Below, in pieces: positions 1 through 59,656 of a stretch of 64,000 nucleotides of DNA; position 1 is the first letter of the stretch, and each line of letters opens with the position of its first letter. Below the pieces are notes generated by a model. The model made no database searches and was not told the DNA's origin. It saw nothing but the letters and a program-made list of their open reading frames with translations. A program made the position numbers and the translations under genes. The DNA comes from Patescibacteria group bacterium (GTDB lineage: Bacteria; Patescibacteriota; Patescibacteriia; 2-02-FULL-49-11): NCBI GenBank assembly GCA_041645165.1, contig JBAZQN010000007.1, positions 8,318 to 72,317 of the forward strand, given 5' to 3'.

Positions 1-650
1 TTCCCCACATCAGTGTCATATCCGCGCTCTTTGAGCACCACCCCGAGCGCATGGAATACTGCAACGCCTACCCGCACTTTCTCCCGCGCGCCTTTTCCGC
101 ACAAGGGCACTACCATGATTTCCTGCACATCAAGATTATTGTCCGCATGCGCGCCGCCGTTGAATATATTGAACATCGGCGTCGGCAGCCTGCTGATATT
201 TCGATCATTCTTCACCGGATGCTTCAGGTATAATGCGTGTAAATATGCAAAGAGCTCCATTCCCTGCGCTTGCGCCGCCGCGCGCGCGCAGGCAAAGGAC
301 ACGCCAATGGTGGCATTGCCTCCTAGGCGCGCCTTTTGGGGCGTGCCGTCAAACACGAGCATAGTCGCGTCAATGCGCTCCTGATCGCGCACATCCATGC
401 CTTTGAGGCGCGCGCCGATCTTTGCGACATTGGCGGATGCACGCAGCACTCCCTTACCCCGGTAGCGCTTCGCATCCCCGTCCCTCAATTCTACCGCCTC
501 GTGCGAGCCTGTGGACGCGCCTGAAGGCACCCCTGCCTTGGCCACAATCCCGCTCTCGAGCGCGACGGAAACCTCAAGAGTCGGGTTGCCGCGGGAATCA
601 AGTATTTCCCGGGCGCATATATTCTTTATAGAAAACTTTTTATGAATCAT
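1..650 (-). CDS. eno: enolase (phosphopyruvate hydratase), N-terminal ~216 aa; the C-terminus runs off the window edge
   Basis: Minus-strand translation from the ATG (complement of 648-650) gives MIHKKFSIKNICAREILDSRGNPTLEVSVALESGIVAKAGVPSGASTGSHEAVELRDGD..., the canonical enolase N-terminus. It was not in the ORF track because it is truncated; plus-strand ORFs 13..631 are antisense to it. Confidence 0.85.
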   Translation of the reverse strand, partial: MIHKKFSIKNICAREILDSRGNPTLEVSVALESGIVAKAGVPSGASTGSHEAVELRDGDAKRYRGKGVLRASANVAKIGARLKGMDVRDQERIDATMLVFDGTPQKARLGGNATIGVSFACARAAAQAQGMELFAYLHALYLKHPVKNDRNISRLPTPMFNIFNGGAHADNNLDVQEIMVVPLCGKGAREKVRVGVAVFHALGVVLKERGYDTDVG

Positions 651-2128: not shown

Positions 2129-2986
2129 TTACTGCGAGGTTCGTGAGGTAATCACTATTATCTTCTTCTCCCCTTCTTCTATTTTCTCCTTCTCCCCGGG
2201 AAAATCGTGAATAGCGTTCCAGATAACCTCATAAGGATAGCGATATCCTTCGCCGCGGCGCGTACCGACGTCATTAGTGATGAATTCCTGTTTCTCATCG
2301 TCAAATCCGCGGACCACTATCATATGGTACCAAGGTCCGGGCTGGCGGAAATATGGATTTTTTAAAAGCCGGCCTGCCATTGGCGCGATGACTAAATTCC
2401 CTCCTTTCAAAATCTCTTTCACCTCTTCCACCCCCTTAACCTCTTTAACCTCAACTCCGATCCCATACACCTGACGCCCGATCTCCGCGGTGCGTTCGGC
2501 ATCACTGTCGCGGTAATCGCCATACTGTTCCTTTTGGTACGACACAAGCTTTAAAATTTCATCTCGCATTTCTTCTTGGGTAAGCGTTTCCATATGGTGC
2601 GCGAAACGGTTCGCAAGCGCCAAGGCCGCCTCTTCGCACGCTTCTCCCCACGGCTCCCGCCAATCGCCAAACGGCGCCTGAGGCTGAAAAGGAACCGGCA
2701 GTACGACGTTATCCGACCTATCCTCCCTCTCAGTCTTATCTATCATATCCGCCGTATCCGACTTATTCGTTCCATCAGCCTTATCCGAATTAATATTTGC
2801 CTTATACGACCTATCGGTCTTATCCGTCCTCTTAGTCTCACCTATGATATCTAACCTATCCACTGTATGTGACTTATCCGTCCTATCAATCCTATAAAAA
2901 GAATCCTCCGGAATAGGAAGGCTTAATCGATACGCAACCACTATCCCTAATAGAATGCTAAGAGCAATGACCGCGGTCCATTTCAT
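2129..2986 (-). CDS. membrane-anchored C39-like cysteine peptidase domain protein with a D/K/T-rich repetitive linker
   Basis: N-terminal TM/signal anchor. Catalytic-Cys context WGEACEEAALALANRF and later PWYHMIVVRGFDDEKQEFITND match the Peptidase_C39-like (C39_2) Cys/His pattern. The linker (aa ~35-95) is encoded by TATCC-type DNA repeats. Confidence 0.55.
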   Translation of the reverse strand: MKWTAVIALSILLGIVVAYRLSLPIPEDSFYRIDRTDKSHTVDRLDIIGETKRTDKTDRSYKANINSDKADGTNKSDTADMIDKTEREDRSDNVVLPVPFQPQAPFGDWREPWGEACEEAALALANRFAHHMETLTQEEMRDEILKLVSYQKEQYGDYRDSDAERTAEIGRQVYGIGVEVKEVKGVEEVKEILKGGNLVIAPMAGRLLKNPYFRQPGPWYHMIVVRGFDDEKQEFITNDVGTRRGEGYRYPYEVIWNAIHDFPGEKEKIEEGEKKIIVITSRTSQ

Positions 2987-3732
2987 ATTCGCAGCACTGA
3001 CGTATAGATATCATCCCGCGGATGAATCTTCAATTTACCTCTTTCGCCTCTGGTAATAAACGTAACCGGCGCATCCTCGATGACTGCGATTGGCGTGCGC
3101 TCGTCTCCCTCGCCCATCGCAAGGACTGCCGCGCTCGCGAGGCAATCCGCGGCTGACACTTTGGTCATCCGCAAGCGCCTCCCCATTAAATCTTTTTTTC
3201 CCACGTAATTCTTTTGTCCTTCAAATCCAAAATACCCTAATGCAATGCCTATGACACCGTGCCGCAAAGGCATAGTCCATGAATCAGTAATAAGCACGCC
3301 GAGCCGTTTCACTTTGTAACGCTGTTTAAACGCATCGTGCAAACGCTTTGCGCTTTCAAAGGCATTCTTAGGCCAAAGAATAAATCCGCCAAACGCATTG
3401 GACTCGTCGATGCCTGCATTGGGAATGAGCATCCCATTCTTTAATGCAAGCCAGCAATGCTCGCTCGGCCACACCTTGTCCGCTTCCTTCCGTACTAATA
3501 TCTCTAGCTGCTTTTCTCTTTCTCTATCTGCGTGAATCTGCGTTTTAGGCAAGCGTGACGATCTGCGTATATCCGCGTCTTTGGGTATGAATCTCCCTTC
3601 GCTTAAACTTACCACTTTTGAAGTAATCGCAATCACACTGCCTTCTTTCACACGGAGAAGCGCGCGATGAATTATCTTAGTGATATCATCACCCGTTTTC
3701 ACTAACGGTGTTTTTATGGGGGTTATATGCAT
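2983..3732 (-). CDS. CofE-like protein (F420-0:gamma-glutamyl ligase family)
   Basis: 249 aa with LIPNAGIDESNA and LITDSW motifs characteristic of the CofE/F420 ligase fold. Confidence 0.55.
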   Translation of the reverse strand: MHITPIKTPLVKTGDDITKIIHRALLRVKEGSVIAITSKVVSLSEGRFIPKDADIRRSSRLPKTQIHADREREKQLEILVRKEADKVWPSEHCWLALKNGMLIPNAGIDESNAFGGFILWPKNAFESAKRLHDAFKQRYKVKRLGVLITDSWTMPLRHGVIGIALGYFGFEGQKNYVGKKDLMGRRLRMTKVSAADCLASAAVLAMGEGDERTPIAVIEDAPVTFITRGERGKLKIHPRDDIYTSVLRI

Positions 3733-5270: not shown

Positions 5271-5690
5271 TTACTCACTGCCTCGCTCTTCCCCCAGCCT
5301 TTTCGCGAGCATCCTCTGCTCTTCGAGCGTGTCAATAATGTCGCCTTCGAATCGCCAATGGGTGATCGAGTTTTTGCCGAAAGGGTTTGCATGGATATGC
5401 TCGGTCACCGCGGGGATATTGAGTTCCGCACCGCGCAGCAGCTCATGCACGACCGGCTCGCCATCGTTCCCAAACACGGTCACCATGGATTCCCCCTCGA
5501 TCTGCTTAAGCCGCTCCTCGACCGGGCGATGGTGCCTCTGCATTTCCTTTCCCGGCGGCAGTTCTAAATATCCCTCGCTCTTCGCATGGGTAGCGCTCGC
5601 GATATAGACGGTATAACCGCCGAGGTCTAACCGCTCGGCATCTTGCAATTGGGGAATGGGGGTGGACATAATATTTAAAATAATTTTCAA
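5271..5690 (-). CDS. cupin-domain protein
   Basis: PGKEMQRHHRPVEE ... VTVFGNDGEP matches the two-motif cupin signature. The start may be the internal MSTPIPQ. Confidence 0.4.
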   Translation of the reverse strand: MKIILNIMSTPIPQLQDAERLDLGGYTVYIASATHAKSEGYLELPPGKEMQRHHRPVEERLKQIEGESMVTVFGNDGEPVVHELLRGAELNIPAVTEHIHANPFGKNSITHWRFEGDIIDTLEEQRMLAKRLGEERGSE

Positions 5691-5826
5691 TTCTCAATTT
5701 TCAATTTCTCCCTCTTCGCGGGATCCCGCGTAGCGGGACAATCAATGTCGCAATGAATCAATTTTCAAACATTGCATCATTGATTCATTGAAAATTAATT
5801 GAAAATTGGTATTTGAAAATTGGAAA

Positions 5827-6783
5827 TTACTCACTGGGTTCTCCTACAATCTCCTTCCTCACCTCCTCCAAATACCCCACCACCATTTGTCGGCATAATT
5901 CCTGTTCCTCAACGCTTTCAATCGCCGCGCACTCCTCTACATTGCCCGTCACCAAGGCGCGGCAAAGCGCTTGCTGGCGTATGCTTTCAAATGCATTGCA
6001 TGACTCTGGCTGGCGCGCGTACGCGATGCAGAGGAATTTCAGCTGCGAGCTCTCAGGACTTACAGAATCACAAAAATCTGGGGGCAGCGTGTCACCCGCA
6101 CTCGCCGCGGCTATTGCCACTTGCGTAAAGCATGAATCGCGCTTGACCCCTTCTTCCTGCGTCTCGCAATAGGCAAGCGATTGGGTAAGCGCTGCGGAGA
6201 TATTCTCCTCCCCTCCCGCACCCGCAGGCGCGGACGAGTAAGTCACGTCAAGCGCCCCCCACGCCGCGATCCGCACGGCAACCAATACGCACACCGCAAC
6301 GATGAGCAATCTGCCGCTGCCTTTGTGAAAATCCTCATCTTCCTCTTGCGAAAAAAACCACTTGATTTGGAATAGCCCTATAAGCAGCACCACCAACGCC
6401 GTGATGCAGAGCAAAATGCCTGCGACAAACCCTGCGACCCACCACCTCCCCAGTTGTGAAGGCCATGAGGCCGCCGCAAAGCTCGTTCCCACTACGCTGG
6501 CCATCATGGCAACAACGACCTGCAGCACCATCAGCCCCCACCCCCACTTCTTGCGCTTCCACAGGCCCACTGCAGTAACAAGCACGAATACGCCTGCCAG
6601 AAATAATAACACCTTCAACTGCGGCGCAAGCGCCACGCTCGTGCGAACTCGCGCAAGGCTTATCACTGCCGCAGGCGCGAACGCAACCGCCAGCAGCGCT
6701 AATCCCGTCGCCGCGCGCTCGAGTGCCACTACCTTCACGCCCCATGCAATATTTAATTGTTTATGCATATCAGCGTAACACAT
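5827..6783 (-). CDS. polytopic membrane protein with a C-terminal 8-Cys domain, function unknown
   Basis: Several predicted TM helices followed by a Cys-rich tail (CETQ...CFTQ...CDSV...CIAY...CNAF...CRAL...CAAI...CRQM). The region is GC-rich, which produces long overlapping ORFs on both strands. Confidence 0.5.
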   Translation of the reverse strand: MCYADMHKQLNIAWGVKVVALERAATGLALLAVAFAPAAVISLARVRTSVALAPQLKVLLFLAGVFVLVTAVGLWKRKKWGWGLMVLQVVVAMMASVVGTSFAAASWPSQLGRWWVAGFVAGILLCITALVVLLIGLFQIKWFFSQEEDEDFHKGSGRLLIVAVCVLVAVRIAAWGALDVTYSSAPAGAGGEENISAALTQSLAYCETQEEGVKRDSCFTQVAIAAASAGDTLPPDFCDSVSPESSQLKFLCIAYARQPESCNAFESIRQQALCRALVTGNVEECAAIESVEEQELCRQMVVGYLEEVRKEIVGEPSE

Positions 6784-6834
6784 TAACCATCCAATTCTGC
6801 CACCATTTTACCATCCTTCACCCATCCGCGCCAC

Positions 6835-7045
6835 TAAATTAATCAGCCATATCCGTCTTATCCCATCCTATCCGACTTATCCGTTCCTATCCGATCCATT
6901 CCGCTTATCCGTCTTATCCCAATATCTCCGACTTATCCGTTCCTATCCGATCCATTCCGCTTATCCGTCTTATCCCACCTATCCGTCTTATCCCAACCTC
7001 TCAAATCTAATCAACCTATCAGACCTATTCTGACTTATCCGTCTT
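6835..7045. repeat. pyrimidine-rich TATCC-type repeat array phased at about 10 bp, including a ~57-bp tandem duplication
   Basis: cttatccgt / cctatccga / ccattccgc units recur roughly every 10-11 bp. gacttatccgttcctatccgatccattccgcttatccgtcttatccca occurs twice in tandem. Confidence 0.8.
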
Positions 7046-7112
7046 ATAATCCTATCCGCCACCTCTCGCCCACCTTTCAACTTCCAGCTTCTAACTTCTC
7101 CCACTTTCTCCT

Positions 7113-7141
7113 TGACACAGAGAGATAATACATGGTAAACC
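7113..7141 (+). promoter_or_regulatory. putative sigma70-like promoter for the lipoprotein gene
   Basis: TTGACA (7113-7118), a 17-nt spacer, and an extended -10 TGgTAAACC. It lies within a ~100-bp segment duplicated at 8215-8320. Confidence 0.3.
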
Positions 7142-7206
7142 AGACTAATTAAATCCATCTTAATAATTCACTAAAATCGTTTCATTAACAAGAAAGGAGG
7201 TACGCC

Positions 7207-7947
7207 ATGCGTACCCAAACAATCGTACTAGGGGTCCTGGGGATTTTTATATTCTCAATTTTTTTCATCAGCTGTGGCAAGACTCCCCCACCCCCCGGTT
7301 CTGTCCTTGCGTTCTGGGACGGCGTTAGCGGTGGGCTGGAGGATATCCTAAAAGGAGACGTCCAGGTTCTGCTCCCCCAGTCACCAGGCGATTGGGTCCT
7401 CCAGGAATCAGAAAAATCCCCGACTGACAAAGGGCTGACCGGCCTTAAGGGGGTCTATTTCTCCGGAGAAGGGGTATCACCGGCAGAATGGGGTCTTTAC
7501 CTTTGGGATGGGAAAAATTGGCAATGTTCTAATTTAATTATTATGCCATCCCCGCAACTATGGAATACCACGGGGGTCATGGCTCTGGAAACGGGCCATG
7601 CCGAATTTAAAGGTTGGTGGTGGAGACTCGTAATGAGGATCCATAGTAAGGAATTGATTTTCCTACCAGAACAGGATCACACCTTCAAGGAGGTGCTGGA
7701 TTTCCATCCAACATTTTATCGAGTAACAATAAAAGGATTTACACTCGATAAAAAAGGAAATTTTTCTAGGCAAACATTCACATCTGACCTAGAGCCTGGA
7801 TGGGGTACCGAGTATAATCCTCGCCTATGGCCGGTATCGCTGGCTAATAAAAGCGCCTACGAAGATGTTTTCAGCTTTCTCGAAGCGTTATTCAAAAACC
7901 TGGGAGGAGTTTCTCTCCAGAAAGGAGGCGCGCCCCTCGAGCCTTAA
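7207..7947 (+). CDS. putative lipoprotein, function unknown
   Basis: Signal peptide ending in a lipobox-like FFISCGK. RBS aaggagg 9 nt upstream. 246 aa. Confidence 0.5.
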   Translation: MRTQTIVLGVLGIFIFSIFFISCGKTPPPPGSVLAFWDGVSGGLEDILKGDVQVLLPQSPGDWVLQESEKSPTDKGLTGLKGVYFSGEGVSPAEWGLYLWDGKNWQCSNLIIMPSPQLWNTTGVMALETGHAEFKGWWWRLVMRIHSKELIFLPEQDHTFKEVLDFHPTFYRVTIKGFTLDKKGNFSRQTFTSDLEPGWGTEYNPRLWPVSLANKSAYEDVFSFLEALFKNLGGVSLQKGGAPLEP

Positions 7948-8039
7948 GGCTCAACACATGGCTTTATCGCAACGCTGCAAAAATCAAAGCCGCCTTGAAT
8001 TTATCGGGCGGCTTTTACGTCGTCCAGATTCAATGCGAG

Positions 8040-8240
8040 AATCCAACCACCGACTTACCCGTTCCTATTTCAACTTATCTCATCCCATCCGATCAATCCA
8101 ACTTATCCGTTCCTATCCGACCTATTCCACTTATCCAGATCTATTCCAGTCTTTGCAATCCAACCACCAACATATCCATTCCTATCCGTCCTATCCCATC
8201 CTATCCGACCTATCCACTCTTATCCGCCTTATAATCCTAT
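8040..8240. repeat. second TATCC-type phased repeat array
   Basis: ccgttcctat, cttatccgttcctatccgacctattccacttatcc and cctatccgtcctatcccatcctatccgacctatcc, homologous to 6835-7045. Confidence 0.75.
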
Positions 8241-8304
8241 CCGCCACCCCCATTCCATCCTCCAACTTCCAGCTTCTATATTCTAACTTCTCCTCTCGCT
8301 CCCT

Positions 8305-8333
8305 TTGACAAATCTCTTCCCACCCTGTATCTT
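8305..8333 (+). promoter_or_regulatory. putative promoter for the small gene at 8387
   Basis: TTGACA (8305-8310), a 17-nt spacer, and TATCTT. The surrounding ~100 bp is a diverged duplicate of 7018-7125. Confidence 0.35.
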
Positions 8334-8386
8334 ATCAACTCAACACTAAAAATTCCAAAATCGAAAAACAAAAAAGAAAGGAATTT

Positions 8387-8578
8387 ATGCTAGTAAAAAT
8401 TAATCTTCACGGGCGACTGACAATTAAAGATGCCGTCGCCCAACTCCTTCCACATCGGCATATCTATAAATTAACCTCCCTTGATGAATCAGTCCTAATA
8501 ATAAGCAGAGGTACTGATGCCGACATAGACACGCTTCGAGCGAAAGGACTGGAAGCGGAAAAAGTGGAAGGAAAATAA
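8387..8578 (+). CDS. small hypothetical protein (63 aa)
   Basis: It has its own promoter-like element, RBS (aaagaaagga) and a downstream intrinsic terminator. No recognisable family. Confidence 0.4.
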   Translation: MLVKINLHGRLTIKDAVAQLLPHRHIYKLTSLDESVLIISRGTDADIDTLRAKGLEAEKVEGK

Positions 8579-8618: not shown

Positions 8619-8817
8619 TAAAGCTTCAATTCAAAATCAATTACTCACTTCAATCTTCTAACTCCTATCTTCCATCTTCCAGCTTCTAAATTCTATCTTC
8701 AAGATTCCAACTTCCATCTTCCAACTTCCCTTTCCTCCACAACTCATCAACTCAAAAACTCACAAACTAACTAATTGACTGATCAACTGATAAACCGACC
8801 AACTGACAAACTGAAAA

Positions 8818-16207: not shown

Positions 16208-16302
16208 CAATTAATTTTCAATATCACAATGTTTGAACATTAGGTCATTGGGATTTATTTGAAAATTGAGAATTGAAAATTGAGAATTGAAAATTACACA
16301 TT

Positions 16303-20359: not shown

Positions 20360-20488
20360 CCAAGTGCATAAATCCCAAATCCCAATTTCCAATGACCAAT
20401 AAAATCCCAATGTTTCAATGATCAAGTTTGGACATTTGGATTTTGAGCTTTATTGGGAATTGGGATTTGGACATTGGGATTTTCTCTT

Positions 20489-21196: not shown

Positions 21197-21334
21197 GAAA
21201 TCCCAAACCCCAATGTCCAATTCCCAATAAAATCCCAACTCCAAAAATCCCAATTTGGCATTTGTCATTTAATCATTATTGGTCATTGGTCATTCATTTG
21301 ACATTGGGATTTTGACATTTGGATTTCTATTTCT

Positions 21335-22564: not shown

Positions 22565-22796
22565 TTCAAATCCATAATTTTCAAGGTTCAATTTTGCAAT
22601 TTTTCCCCCGACTTGTCGGGGGATCCCGCTGCGGCGGGACAATCAATGTTACAATGATCCAATTTTCCAATGTTTGAAAATTGTCGCATTGAAAATTATT
22701 TGAAAATTGAGCACTGGGAATTGAAAATTATCAAGGTTGGGATTTATTTGGACACTGGACATTGGAATTTGGAAATTGAAATACACTCATTACTTT

Positions 22797-48784: not shown

Positions 48785-48978
48785 TGTGTAACAATTTGGC
48801 AGTTTAACAGTTTAGCAGTTTAAACAACTTAGGGCGCTTAAAAAAATAACATTTCTATTAACTACAAGGTTTGGCCTTGTTTTCCGGAACTATAATGTCA
48901 ATAGGTTGGATATGTTATTTTTTTACGGCGCCTTAGCCATTTAACCATTAATATTAAACAACAATTAAAGTGCAGAAA

Positions 48979-57279: not shown

Positions 57280-58085
57280 TTATTCACTACTCTGGGTCTT
57301 TTCTAATCCAACCGCCAAGAAAACCGAATCCTGTCTTAAGAACTGACCAATATTCTGCTTGTAGTACCTGGCGTTCGCATACGTCAAACTGGTGTCCCTG
57401 TCATACATGTGCCCTGTAAACTTCCTCTGTTCGTCGAAGGAGCCTGATTTCCAGTCAATCCTCATTGATCCGTAGGGGTAGTAGTCCAATAATTGTACCA
57501 TGCCTCCGGTGCTATTCGTAGCGACGTTAGAACCCGTCAGATGATCCGTGTGGATGTATTGGAGGGTTGAGCCTTCCACTGTGGCAACCAGCTGGCTTCC
57601 TGCGTAGATATGCTTACTATTCTTCGTCCCATCGCTATTATACAGCTTATTCGCATACCGCGTCGTCACGCTTCCTGAAACCAGTTTCGTCCTCTGGCCT
57701 GTATGGTCGTACTGATAGGTGACGGTGGAACCTGTTTTCTGGGATTGGGTCAGCTGGTTGGCGTAGTTCCATGAGTGAGTCCAGGTGGAATCAGAGGTCA
57801 GGTTGCCGTTGTTATCATACGCGTAGGTCACGCCGTTGACCGACGTTGCCGCATGGGGGTTCGCGTAATTGGTGCCTTGGTAGAGGTAAGCCCCGACATC
57901 TGACTTGTTAGAGATGTTGCCGATGGCGTCGTAGGAATACGTTTGCGTGAAGTTTCCTGGACTGGTGGATGTGGCGTTGGTGGCGATAGCGGAGGTAAGG
58001 CGATGCAGATCATCATAGGCATGGGTGATGGTATCCGCGTCTGGCTCTGCATTTGGCGCGATTGCGGGGGCTATTTCGTCGAATA
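57280..58085 (-). pseudogene. RHS/YD-repeat C-terminal fragment, truncated and frameshifted remnant
   Basis: 57280-57831 encodes YDHTGQRTK...YANARYYKQNIGQFLRQD but stops right after the RHS core. 57828-58052 continues in another frame. The DNA is near-identical to 59200-59640 and 61590-62040. Confidence 0.55.
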
Positions 58086-58420: not shown

Positions 58421-59656
58421 TCATTCCTTAATAACGTTATCAACTTTATTCCAATCAACCAACTCGCCTTGTTGGTTATTCCAATAATCCAGATTTGTTC
58501 CTTGTCCATGAACGGCAGGGTCTGGTTTGAAGAACGTCCTGATAGTGCCGTCCGGATTGTAGGAACCGAGCGTGTTCGCTGCTTCGTCATAGACTCTGAC
58601 AATGCCATCTTTATCAATCTTAGTCGGCAACTTATCGCTCTGTGCTCTCTGAAGAAAGTCGCGAGCCAAATCTGTATATTCGTCAGCGCTCCGAGCGCCG
58701 AATTCGCTAGCATGGTCCAAGTAATGTTCTTTATATTTTGTAGGGCTGGCCCACGCCTTAGCTCCTTTCAACCCTTTCGACGCATCCGCCACATTATCGA
58801 AGTGGCCCGCAACGAGTCTCGCTGCCTTACCGTATCCGCCTCCAACGGATAGAAGCCCAATGCCTACGCCTGCAAGAGTAATACTCTTCTGAATTTTGGT
58901 CGAGTTTGGATTAAGCCAAGTCTTTACGAGATCATAGACGTCCCAGACCGTAAAACCCGCTTCAACTGCAAGGTACATTAATCCTGCGATACTGAATGTA
59001 ACCGGTTCAGTGCCGAACGGGTCAATATATTTCATCGGATTATTATTCGCGTATGCATAGCTGTTCAATCCTTGTGGATTGCTCAACAGTGCTGCCGACT
59101 GCGCTCCATCTCGAACACCAATAGTAAGATACACGGGATCCTGTGATAAGAACCGTCCAATCCCCTGCTTGTAATACCTCGCATTGGCATACGTTAAACT
59201 GGTATCCCTATCAAACTCATGCCCCGTGAACTTCCTCTGTTCGTCGAAGGAGCCTGACTTCCAGTCAATCCTCATTGATCCGTAGGGATAGTAGTCCAAT
59301 AATTGTACCATGCCTCCACTACTGTTCGTAGCGGCGTTCGAGCCGGTGAGGTGGTCGGTATGGAGGTATTGAAGTGTCGTACCCTCGACTGTTCCTATGA
59401 GCTGGCTTCCTGCGTAGATATGCTTGGTTGCCGTGGTTTGCTTGATATTGTAGAGCTTGTTGGGATAGTGGCGGGCATAGCCGCTCACGCCGTCATAGTA
59501 CTTGGTCCTTTGCCCTGTGTGGTCGTATTGGTAGGTGACGGTGGAGCCTGTTTTCTGGGACTGGGTAAGCTGGTTAGCGTAGTTCCAAGTGTGAGTCCAC
59601 GTCGAATCTGACGTGAGATTGCCGTTGTTGTCATACGCGTAGGTCACGCCACCCAC
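58421..59656 (-). CDS. orphan RHS C-terminal cassette: RHS core plus a distinct C-terminal toxin domain of unknown type
   Basis: YDHTGQRTKYYDG...DRDTSLTYANARYYKQGIGRFLSQDPV (RHS repeat-associated core), then a ~230-aa unrelated C-terminal domain ending HGQGTNLDYWNNQ. Confidence 0.6.
   Translation of the reverse strand: MGGVTYAYDNNGNLTSDSTWTHTWNYANQLTQSQKTGSTVTYQYDHTGQRTKYYDGVSGYARHYPNKLYNIKQTTATKHIYAGSQLIGTVEGTTLQYLHTDHLTGSNAATNSSGGMVQLLDYYPYGSMRIDWKSGSFDEQRKFTGHEFDRDTSLTYANARYYKQGIGRFLSQDPVYLTIGVRDGAQSAALLSNPQGLNSYAYANNNPMKYIDPFGTEPVTFSIAGLMYLAVEAGFTVWDVYDLVKTWLNPNSTKIQKSITLAGVGIGLLSVGGGYGKAARLVAGHFDNVADASKGLKGAKAWASPTKYKEHYLDHASEFGARSADEYTDLARDFLQRAQSDKLPTKIDKDGIVRVYDEAANTLGSYNPDGTIRTFFKPDPAVHGQGTNLDYWNNQQGELVDWNKVDNVIKE

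Follow-up and report, generated by a model that had tools for sequence, protein, structure and literature searches.

The peptidase gene and its translated repeat

The window, that is, the whole 64-kb stretch of DNA analysed here, contains three arrays of one short repeat, the first of which lies within a gene:

2129-2986, minus strand: membrane-anchored cysteine peptidase gene (product of 285 aa, C39-like, papain fold) (evidence: Pfam PF13529, homologues, AlphaFold)
2705-2896, minus strand: coding array of ~20-21 nine-bp units, in frame (evidence: spacing in multiples of 9 nt, matrix matches, autocorrelation)

The gene had originally been called a C39-like peptidase, and the Pfam match of its product to Peptidase_C39_2 (PF13529, E = 8.9e-9) confirms this. 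Cys117, His221 and other residues are invariant among 695 homologues, and Foldseek matched the AlphaFold model to 3erv and to phytochelatin-synthase-like folds. The protein is composed of a conserved transmembrane helix (residues 3-22), the repeat linker and the catalytic domain (residues 93-285). The start codon of its gene overlaps with the stop codon that ends the preceding gene.

The repeat unit is 9 bp long and reads CYTATCCGW on the plus strand, with [T/A]C[T/C]TATCCG[T/A] as its fuller form. To locate it we used an 11-nt weight matrix trained on the two intergenic arrays alone (6847-7062 and 8040-8247), counting scores of at least 8 bits as matches. The region 2690-2900 held 11 matches, compared with 0.08 expected from the background rate in the rest of the window (Poisson p ~2e-20). 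Over the 64-kb window, 29 matches fell in arrays, and elsewhere there were 25 on the plus strand and 21 on the minus strand. Chains of at least three units spaced 9-10 nt apart were more discriminating: all six lie within the three array regions, 20 shuffles gave 0-1, and no such chain occurs outside the three sites in 72 kb (the window plus 8 kb of its contig). The original prediction had placed a YTATCCG-type unit at these three sites and had taken coding and intergenic sequence alike to be built of one repeat; both points are supported by the matrix matches and by the shared consensus, which is identical across 8-9 coding and intergenic arrays from four genomes. The orientation is also the same in the coding and the intergenic arrays, with CYTATCCGW on the plus strand at all three sites. 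The repeat is a real, lineage-specific feature.

On the sense strand of the peptidase gene the unit becomes GAT-A[AG]G-NCG, or D-[K/R]-[T/S], and the array as a whole encodes residues ~31-94, the D/K/T/R-rich stretch that had been read from the open reading frame. The frame stays open throughout, since each unit consists of three codons and includes no stop, and the same holds in four orthologues. The resulting linker of ~65 residues is disordered, as had been proposed: AlphaFold pLDDT is below 50 over residues 27-89 (27-78 and 82-89), where secondary structure is not predicted, and both flanks are modelled with confidence. Codon choice in this segment is driven by the DNA unit. In four orthologous linkers Arg is encoded by AGG in 26 of 28 cases (15% genome-wide), Lys by AAG in 16 of 16 (36% genome-wide) and Asp by GAT in 35 of 37 (62% genome-wide). 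In other homologues this position is taken by unrelated linkers, some of them Pro-rich, that measure 0-100 aa. The coding array has the properties of an in-frame VNTR, namely a unit length divisible by 3, gain and loss of whole units and a location in a non-globular spacer between domains.

The spacing of the coding units is strict. Their TATC cores lie 9, 18 or 27 nt apart with the single exception of 30, and autocorrelation peaks at lags 9 (z = 7.3), 18 (z = 6.6) and 27 (z = 6.8), with no signal at lags 10-11 or 21. TRF did not call this array because its units are too diverged.

Intergenic arrays and the neighbouring promoters

The two other arrays lie between genes a few kb away, in the following setting:

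5827-6783, minus strand: gene whose product is a multi-pass membrane protein, its C-terminal domain rich in Cys
6805-6834, minus strand: putative promoter of this 313/318-aa gene, proposed from conservation (a simple consensus scan made no call)
6847-7062, no strand assigned: array 1, ~24 units of 9-10 bp (CYTATCCSWY), from TRF, unit listing and autocorrelation
7112-7141, plus strand: putative promoter (TTGACA, 18 nt, TGG-TAAACC) of a 246-aa lipoprotein-like gene, read from the sequence
7989-8017, plus strand: terminator-like hairpin (GCCGCC...GGGCGGC, then TTTT) after the 246-aa gene, read from the sequence
8040-8247, no strand assigned: array 2, ~20 units, those at the 5' end more degenerate, from TRF and unit listing
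8305-8333, plus strand: promoter-like site (TTGACA, 17 nt, TATCTT), from the consensus scan (10/12 matches)

Array 1 occupies the spacer between two divergent promoters. On one side is the membrane-protein gene, whose NCBI start at 6768 gives a product of 313 aa that matched no Pfam or NCBIfam family. Its putative promoter includes the extended -10 element TGGTAAAAT (the reverse complement of 6805-6813) and, 17 nt upstream of this element, a conserved GTGGCGC (6828-6834), with array 1 starting ~12 nt further upstream. This promoter sequence is kept in five lineages (the window, L003, L004/L011, L005 and L135). On the other side, ~50 nt downstream of the array, lies the putative promoter of the lipoprotein-like gene (7207-7947), which is kept in L005; the consensus scan made no call here either.

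Array 2 begins just 3' of the terminator-like hairpin and is followed by the promoter-like site, which lies upstream of a 63-aa ORF (8387-8578). When 6784-7206 was aligned with 7990-8386, mean column identity was 77%, with a common block CTTATAATCCTATCCGCCACC...AACTTCCAGCTTCTA. Judged by this alignment, array 2 and the promoter following it are a duplicate of array 1 and its downstream promoter.

In both intergenic arrays 9- and 10-nt units are intermixed. The period is 9.3-9.5 bp, with spectral peaks at 9.3 and 9.7 (9.2, 9.3 and 9.7 bp over the three arrays) and autocorrelation peaks at lags 9-10, 19 and 28. TRF reports periods of 9, 19, 28 and 56, and array 1 has a higher-order period of 56 bp (88% matches) as well as one of 28 bp. 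Short tandem repeats of many different units are ~18-fold enriched in intergenic DNA. A literature search on tandem repeats in Patescibacteria returned nothing relevant.

The arrays in related lineages

In three related lineages (L003, L004/L011 and L005) the linker array is accompanied by a second one that directly precedes the promoter of the 313-aa gene. The two arrays co-occur in all four examined lineages that have either as a full array. The 313-aa gene is the only consistent neighbour of the intergenic array: the other side of the array is the terminator of a rhomboid gene in L003 and L011, and in the window and L005 the array sits between divergent promoters. Among the genome contigs searched with the peptidase there was a single close relative, L011 (Uhrbacteria RIFCSPLOWO2_02_FULL_49_11), and the distant peptidase matches L012-L014 had no arrays.

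Comparison of orthologues reveals linkers that are polymorphic in length by whole units. Relative to an orthologue of 80% identity there is a linker indel of 54 nt (6 units), flanked by the 12-nt direct repeat AGGACGGATAAG, and a second, separate one of 9 nt; in one strain variant the linker is shorter by 18 nt. Unit counts run from 0-3 in more distant relatives (0 in L008, 3 in L009) through ~7-9 in L003, L005 and L011 to ~20-21 in the window; in L008 another gene, that of the HAD hydrolase, contains a 3-unit array. The linkers of close orthologues are thus both repetitive and variable, relatives possess the intergenic arrays too, and the description of the repeat as an expanding one is sustained. 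Within the L011-like species the arrays are equally long in 7 contigs from different samples, as are the linkers in 11 of 14 proteins, which argues that slippage is not fast. The number of intergenic units (~12 to 24) and their spacing (9.0 in L003, 9.3-9.5 in the window) also vary among lineages, which argues against any phase-dependent architecture.

The suggestion that the repeat is mobile was not supported: it has no terminal inverted repeats and no further copies in 72 kb of the window genome or in ~80 kb of relatives, the ~150 kb of sequence on which its description as purely local is based. A MITE was likewise rejected: arrays 1 and 2 are neither flanked nor spanned by inverted repeats, and those around the coding array are trivial pairs of 10-15 nt. 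We also searched metagenome DNA with the pattern DATARG-NNN in four units; the matches listed were mostly eukaryotic GATA-type microsatellites, and the window organism was not among them. They include at least five bacterial arrays with ACGGATA[AG]G units (L032, L041, L067, L122 and L130). They are no evidence for a repeat family spanning phyla, because the fraction of ACGGATA[AG]G among the listed matches is about that expected by chance for a free 3-nt spacer. When the linker peptide was searched against 5.8 billion proteins, the word filter let no candidate through.

The window and L003 are only 36-55% identical at 4-fold degenerate sites, and the spacer between the peptidase and PGK genes is unalignable even with the closest relative, L011 (27-47% identity, random-like). 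Orthologous intergenic arrays have 10-20 12-mers in common; the intergenic and coding arrays of one genome share 0-3 (9 in L003). This pattern indicates that coding and intergenic arrays evolved as separate orthologous lineages.

Origin and possible function of the arrays

We favour, with a probability of roughly 0.5, a reading in which the repeat is a clade-restricted 9-bp minisatellite, translated in one copy, whose intergenic copies upstream of promoters are likely binding-site arrays. The array-bearing clade is a small group of Uhrbacteria-like Patescibacteria. The coding copy is held strictly in frame because its unit (GAT-A[AG]G-NCG) amounts to three codons, and its translation supplies a charged, disordered (D-K/R-T/S)n spacer that joins the membrane helix to the catalytic domain. 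Resizing by whole units may proceed through slipped-strand mispairing or recombination between units, and the peptidase would tolerate it because a flexible spacer suffices at this position. Free of any reading frame, the intergenic copies may have drifted between 9- and 10-nt units, with 28- and 56-bp higher-order periods. They would occupy untranscribed spacers immediately 5' of promoters, with the promoter of the 313-aa gene, ~3.9 kb away, as the constant partner, and one array-plus-promoter module was duplicated in the window genome. The unit common to the coding and intergenic arrays could stem from old local copying within a ~5-kb neighbourhood, followed by separate evolution.

The case for a function of the intergenic copies is built on constraint. 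The unit consensus has remained unchanged despite ~1 neutral substitution per site, from which we infer selection on the intergenic motif; its most plausible role would be that of a binding-site array for a DNA-binding protein that acts on the adjacent promoters. The argument is only moderately strong: the chance that seven positions would stay unchanged is ~0.004-0.02 for L003, and the arrays were detected with a window-derived matrix. A search of the neighbouring gene products for a DNA-binding protein, which counts against this reading too, found none. A consensus that is constant over nearly saturated neutral divergence points to an uncharacterised promoter-upstream motif in Patescibacteria, a phylum whose transcriptional regulation is, to our knowledge, almost wholly uncharted.

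The same arrays may instead be a neutral satellite, with a 9-bp unit that arose once in a slippage-prone genome, was copied locally and has been kept by molecular drive alone; the intergenic arrays would then be functionless and the linker sequence incidental. We consider this possible, at clearly less than even odds. It agrees with the ~18-fold intergenic enrichment, with the 28- and 56-bp periods of array 1, with the differences in unit number and spacing among lineages and with the distant relatives, which have no arrays and quite different linker compositions. It accounts poorly for a consensus that is constant in eight arrays when 4-fold sites are only 36-55% identical and the ordinary peptidase-PGK spacer can already no longer be aligned with that of the closest relative. 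Conversion from the protein-constrained copy cannot easily hold the motif either, given how few 12-mers the coding and intergenic arrays exchange.

Selection could also act on both kinds of array through a single protein. Under such a scheme, a lineage-specific protein would recognise GGATA[AG]G at both, the linker DNA would be constrained twice over, as protein spacer and as binding array, and the two arrays, which bracket a ~4-kb block of envelope genes from the 313-aa gene to the peptidase, would co-regulate that block by looping, spreading or a roadblock. If true, the sequence of a protein would here have been shaped by regulatory DNA, or regulatory DNA by a protein sequence. Consensus and orientation are alike at both sites in four lineages, the two arrays occur together in all four, and the linker codons fit the DNA motif far beyond genome usage, yet recent slippage alone can explain identical codons. 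An apparent conservation of synonymous sites in the linker (46 of 47 codons identical between the window and L004/L011) had to be set aside, because it is not specific to the linker and belongs to a 500-nt block of high identity (2600 to 3100) that also takes in the end of the upstream gene, the transmembrane region and the start of the catalytic domain. Placement is loose as well, with three units in the linker of L009 and three in the HAD hydrolase gene of L008, and no candidate binding protein was found among the neighbouring gene products: none of the hypothetical proteins has a DNA-binding domain, and neither ParA, ParM, TubZ nor a small DNA-binding gene is encoded near the arrays. We regard dual use of the linker DNA as unlikely.

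An element acting as RNA is a still weaker prospect, and we think it very improbable that the GGAUARG sense repeats sequester an RNA-binding protein like a sponge (as CsrB and RsmZ do) or slow translation past the membrane anchor through pausing or rare codons. In the peptidase gene and the 313-aa gene alike the motif does lie on the sense strand, and the minority codons AGG and AAG cluster 10-75 codons past the transmembrane helix. The intergenic arrays, however, sit between terminator and promoter and are probably not transcribed, predicted RNA structure is absent (folding z = 0.04), and AGG, at 15% of genomic Arg codons, is not especially rare. An Rfam search gave no match at E <=1 apart from a chance miRNA match elsewhere, and a structured or sponge RNA was rejected on these grounds.

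Intrinsic curvature, or protein sites phased at 10.5 bp along a single face of the helix, can be dismissed almost entirely even though the arrays lie upstream of promoters, a usual place for curved DNA: the units, originally thought to recur every ~10-11 bp, have periods of 9.0 bp in the gene and 9.3-9.7 bp between genes, autocorrelation peaks at multiples of ~9 and is absent at lag 21, spectral power at 10.5 bp is at background level, the unit has no A-tracts, and successive 9.3-bp units should turn ~40 degrees round the helix, so that bends from each unit would cancel across the array.

Three further candidates were discarded. DnaA boxes are 9-mers near TTATCCACA, and the unit TTATCCGTC departs from them at positions 7-9, which speaks against an oriC or DnaA-box cluster; GC skew stays negative along the whole window and does not switch, and the neighbouring genes are those for PGK, a HAD hydrolase, a CofE-like ligase, a rhomboid protein and purine synthesis, not dnaA or dnaN. 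A phase-variable contingency locus was rejected because unit length is divisible by 3, no array falls within the -35/-10 spacer and the seven conspecific contigs carry identical arrays. The intergenic array is not a coding extension of the 313-aa gene, given its stops, the frame shifts that the mix of 9 and 10 nt brings and the conserved promoter between array and ATG.

The minisatellite that we favour has partial counterparts in known systems. Rickettsia palindromic elements are palindromes of ~150 bp with tens of dispersed genomic copies, some in frame inside ORFs, and they and MITEs resemble the present case in that one family of DNA repeats is both intergenic and translated inside an ORF whose host tolerates it (PMC10969869). 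Unlike them, the present repeat is a head-to-tail array of 9-bp units with neither inverted repeats nor defined ends, and it occurs at only 2-3 neighbouring sites in ~72 kb. The intergenic arrays resemble the heptads bound by the omega repressor of pSM19035 and the ParR-parC iterons of R1 and pSK41, which are short direct-repeat arrays, cooperatively bound and next to promoters. Here, too, at least 10-20 contiguous direct repeats of 7-11 bp in the same orientation, with a conserved core and variable edges, abut or flank promoters. The likeness is one of repeat architecture and of position next to promoters. The present arrays differ in that they stand in a housekeeping region of a chromosome, where neither partition nor replication genes are close by, and in that one of them is inside an ORF.

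The feature is restricted to one lineage and opens no major question. What it offers is one short repeat under two regimes within 4 kb, a frame-bound strict 9 bp and an unconstrained 9/10-bp mix, and an indication that minisatellite dynamics can make and resize the low-complexity linkers that envelope proteins carry in reduced-genome Patescibacteria. In this respect a close parallel is the 'R region' of the staphylococcal ClfA and Sdr proteins, an in-frame Ser-Asp VNTR stalk encoded by an 18-bp DNA repeat. The stalks and the peptidase linker are alike in having an in-frame unit that is a multiple of 3 nt, in forming a flexible, charged, low-complexity spacer between an envelope anchor and a functional domain, in changing length by whole units between strains and species, and in their monotonous codons, which follow from the DNA unit being the entity that is copied. 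They differ in the anchor, an N-terminal membrane helix in the peptidase and a C-terminal wall anchor in ClfA and Sdr, and in the unit, which in the peptidase measures 9 bp and, unusually, is also found in promoter-adjacent non-coding arrays a few kb away.

The repeat unit and its period

We conclude that the repeat is a clade-restricted 9-bp minisatellite. It forms three arrays in the window, and at each of them the unit can be discerned by eye:

2705..2896, coding array inside the C39-like peptidase gene (2129..2986, minus strand)
6847..7062, intergenic array 1, next to a membrane-protein gene (5827..6783, minus strand)
8040..8247, intergenic array 2

The window lies within a 74.8-kb metagenomic contig (ENA ERZ27249422 k141_80972, Patescibacteria bacterium); among named organisms, Candidatus Uhrbacteria bacterium RIFCSPLOWO2_02_FULL_49_11 is the nearest relative, and the repeat-bearing peptidase is NCBI entry MFA4872952.1, 'C39 family peptidase'. 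All genes between 682 and 6783 are on the minus strand. Ordered by rising coordinate, they encode PGK, C39-like peptidase, CofE-like ligase, HAD hydrolase, pilin-like, small cupin-like and the membrane protein (313 or 318 aa, depending on the start chosen), for which no known family was found.

Anchoring the units of both intergenic arrays on TATC yields the consensus [A/T]C[C/T]TATCCG[A/T][C/T]. A weight matrix made solely from these units and run over the whole window matched, at a cut-off of at least 8 bits, 29 times in the intergenic arrays and 11 times in 2690-2900, compared with 25 plus-strand and 21 minus-strand matches in the remaining 63 kb. The Poisson probability of the coding cluster is ~2e-20, and chains of at least three units at 9-10 nt spacing are confined to the three regions (shuffles give 0-1). 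The original prediction that one repeat occurs both between genes and within the ORF is thus borne out.

The same prediction put the phase of the repeat at ~10.5 bp (10-11 bp), which would suggest intrinsic DNA curvature or arrays of protein-binding sites. Within the ORF, however, cores lie 9, 18 or 27 nt apart, with autocorrelation z scores of 7.3, 6.6 and 6.8 at these lags, while the intergenic arrays alternate 9- and 10-nt units (autocorrelation lags 9-10, 19 and 28; TRF periods 9, 19, 28 and 56). Spectral peaks in the three regions fall at 9.2-9.7 bp, and neither the spectral nor the autocorrelation analysis of the arrays gave a signal at 10.5 or 21. The proposed phase therefore does not hold, and the period of the arrays refutes the curvature reading.

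Arrays in related lineages

Three related lineages were recovered, with peptidases 80% (L004/L011), 69% (L005) and 59% (L003) identical to the query by BLAST and syntenic regions ~70-88% identical to the window in nucleotide sequence. Each has one array in the peptidase linker and one directly upstream of a gene for a 311-316-aa membrane protein; no further arrays were found within the 7-20 kb per lineage. More distant relatives (~53-54% identity) have few units or none: the linker of L009 has 3 units, and that of L008 is Pro-rich, with no array upstream of its 298-aa gene. L008 also has a 3-unit TCGGATAAG mini-array (8309-8337; Ser-Asp-Lys) at the N-terminus of the adjoining HAD hydrolase gene.

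Linker length is polymorphic among orthologues and changes by whole units. The 80% orthologue is missing six units (54 nt) present in the window, a gap with AGGACGGATAAG at either junction, and carries an extra 9-nt unit; one strain variant is 18 nt shorter. Seven contigs of the L011-like species from separate samples have identical arrays, so the arrays are not hypermutable. A block of ~500 nt (window 2600-3100, L011 7560-8060) that runs from the end of the CofE-like gene (3') into the first half of the peptidase gene (5') is 92-100% identical to the L011-like species, against ~80% in its flanks, and has the look of a tract recombined between lineages. The apparent synonymous conservation of the linker against L011 belongs to this block and is unusable as evidence.

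Orthologous intergenic arrays of different genomes have 10-20 12-mers in common, and coding arrays are likewise more alike among themselves, whereas the intergenic and coding arrays of one genome share 0-3 (9 in L003). This pattern indicates that the two classes had already separated when these lineages diverged. The coding copy may be the older: this is hinted at, without being settled, by a unit as long as three codons (9 nt), by the strictly 9-nt spacing of the L003 intergenic array and by the 3 units in the L009 linker.

The coding copy as a peptidase linker

On the coding strand the unit reads GAT-A[AG]G-NCG and encodes Asp-Lys/Arg-Thr/Ser; ~21 variably decayed units make up residues ~31-94 of the peptidase. 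The AlphaFold model divides the protein as follows:

Residues 3-22, N-terminal helix, confident
Residues 27-89, unstructured stretch, pLDDT <50
Residues 93-285, papain-like domain, confident; best PDB match 3erv, a C39-like peptidase

The proposed disordered linker rich in D, K, T and R is supported by this low-confidence stretch between two confident parts. Among homologues, the helix at the N-terminus and the Cys and His of the active site are conserved, while the linker between helix and catalytic domain is hypervariable in length and composition (Pro-rich, charged or absent); the array is therefore indeed translated and forms a spacer. Codon choice in the linker tracks the DNA unit and not genome usage: in four orthologous linkers, AGG serves for 26 of 28 Arg (genome 15%), AAG for 16 of 16 Lys (36%) and GAT for 35 of 37 Asp (62%). 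Here the reading frame filters the minisatellite, which serves as a resizable, disordered, charged stalk and behaves much as do the stalks that in-frame repeats encode in surface proteins of Gram-positive bacteria.

Intergenic arrays and comparable repeats

The array of L003 and L011 is bounded on one side by the rhomboid-gene terminator and on the other by a promoter-like element (GTGGCGC, 17 nt, TGGTAAAAT) that is conserved in five lineages; the first unit is ~10 nt upstream of this element. In the window and L005 an insertion on the other side has brought in a lipoprotein-like gene under its own TTGACA-type promoter, which leaves array 1 as the spacer between two divergent putative promoters. 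Array 2 and the promoter after it duplicate array 1 and its promoter (77% identical) and lie behind a terminator, ahead of a 63-aa ORF. Given these positions, the spacers are probably not transcribed. No RNA structure (z = 0.04) or Rfam match was found in the intergenic arrays, and no dnaA, dnaN, partition genes or GC-skew switch near the arrays.

Between the rhomboid gene and the 313-aa gene, the 246-aa lipoprotein-like gene (7207-7947) and the 63-aa ORF (8387-8578) are lineage-specific insertions, and an array-plus-promoter module precedes each of them; L003 and L011 lack both, L005 has the former, and neither product matched a Pfam or NCBIfam family. Mutation of the terminal units to CTTATAAT has created perfect TATAAT hexamers in array 1 (7044-7049) and array 2 (8231-8236), with no suitable -35 element 17 nt upstream.

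The intergenic copies most likely act as arrays of protein-binding sites upstream of promoters. Their likeness is to the iteron or heptad arrays to which small repressors bind; here the cognate genes are absent from the neighbourhood. A neutral satellite is a serious rival. The consensus of such a satellite is expected to drift at the neutral rate, yet the unit consensus is identical in nine of nine arrays while 4-fold degenerate sites of the window and L003 are down to 36-55% identity, or about one substitution per site, and the peptidase-PGK spacer is random-like even against the closest relative. We infer from this that the motif of the non-coding arrays is under selection; it is the weakest step of the argument, as the chance of an unchanged consensus under neutrality is ~0.004-0.02 and the arrays were detected with a window-derived matrix.

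In the intergenic spacers the repeat is free to adopt units of 9 or 10 nt as well as higher-order periods. The genome's general tendency to short intergenic tandem repeats, which cover 6.8% of non-coding DNA in the window (TRF arrays) against ~0.4% in shuffles, fits frequent slipped-strand events. Others, with periods of 7-19 bp, occur at 5682-5828, 8648-8729, 16259-16295, 20370-20482, 21273-21326, 22644-22782 and 48789-48832; their units differ (CTTCCAT x11.7, AATTGAA, TTGAAAA, ATTGGGA and others), and L003, L008 and L011 have the same habit with different units. A 300-nt direct repeat (57323-57622 and 59133-59432, starts 1.8 kb apart) is 82% identical.

Rickettsia palindromic elements likewise place one repeat both between genes and in an ORF (PMC10969869). 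None of the features that define MITEs was found here: the arrays have no inverted repeats, and 72 kb of the contig and about 80 kb of relatives gave no dispersed copies. The suggestion of a mobile element is not supported as far as a MITE is concerned. Altogether, the repeat is genuine, a modestly unusual variation on known repeat biology.

The matches listed by a metagenome DNA-pattern search include contigs of unrelated bacteria. L041 (Ga0187893_10000580, GC 69%) has an RND-type transporter, one loop of which contains (Asp-Arg-Thr)n, encoded at ~3280-3360 by nine in-frame GATAGGACG units with codons atypical for that GC; given how the search pattern was built, the likeness is probably a coincidence. 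Short arrays of the 9-mers GATAGGACG or GATAAGACG in L122 (~350-450, reverse strand) and L130 (two copies) are inverted pairs that form hairpins just 3' of genes, resembling REP or terminator elements.
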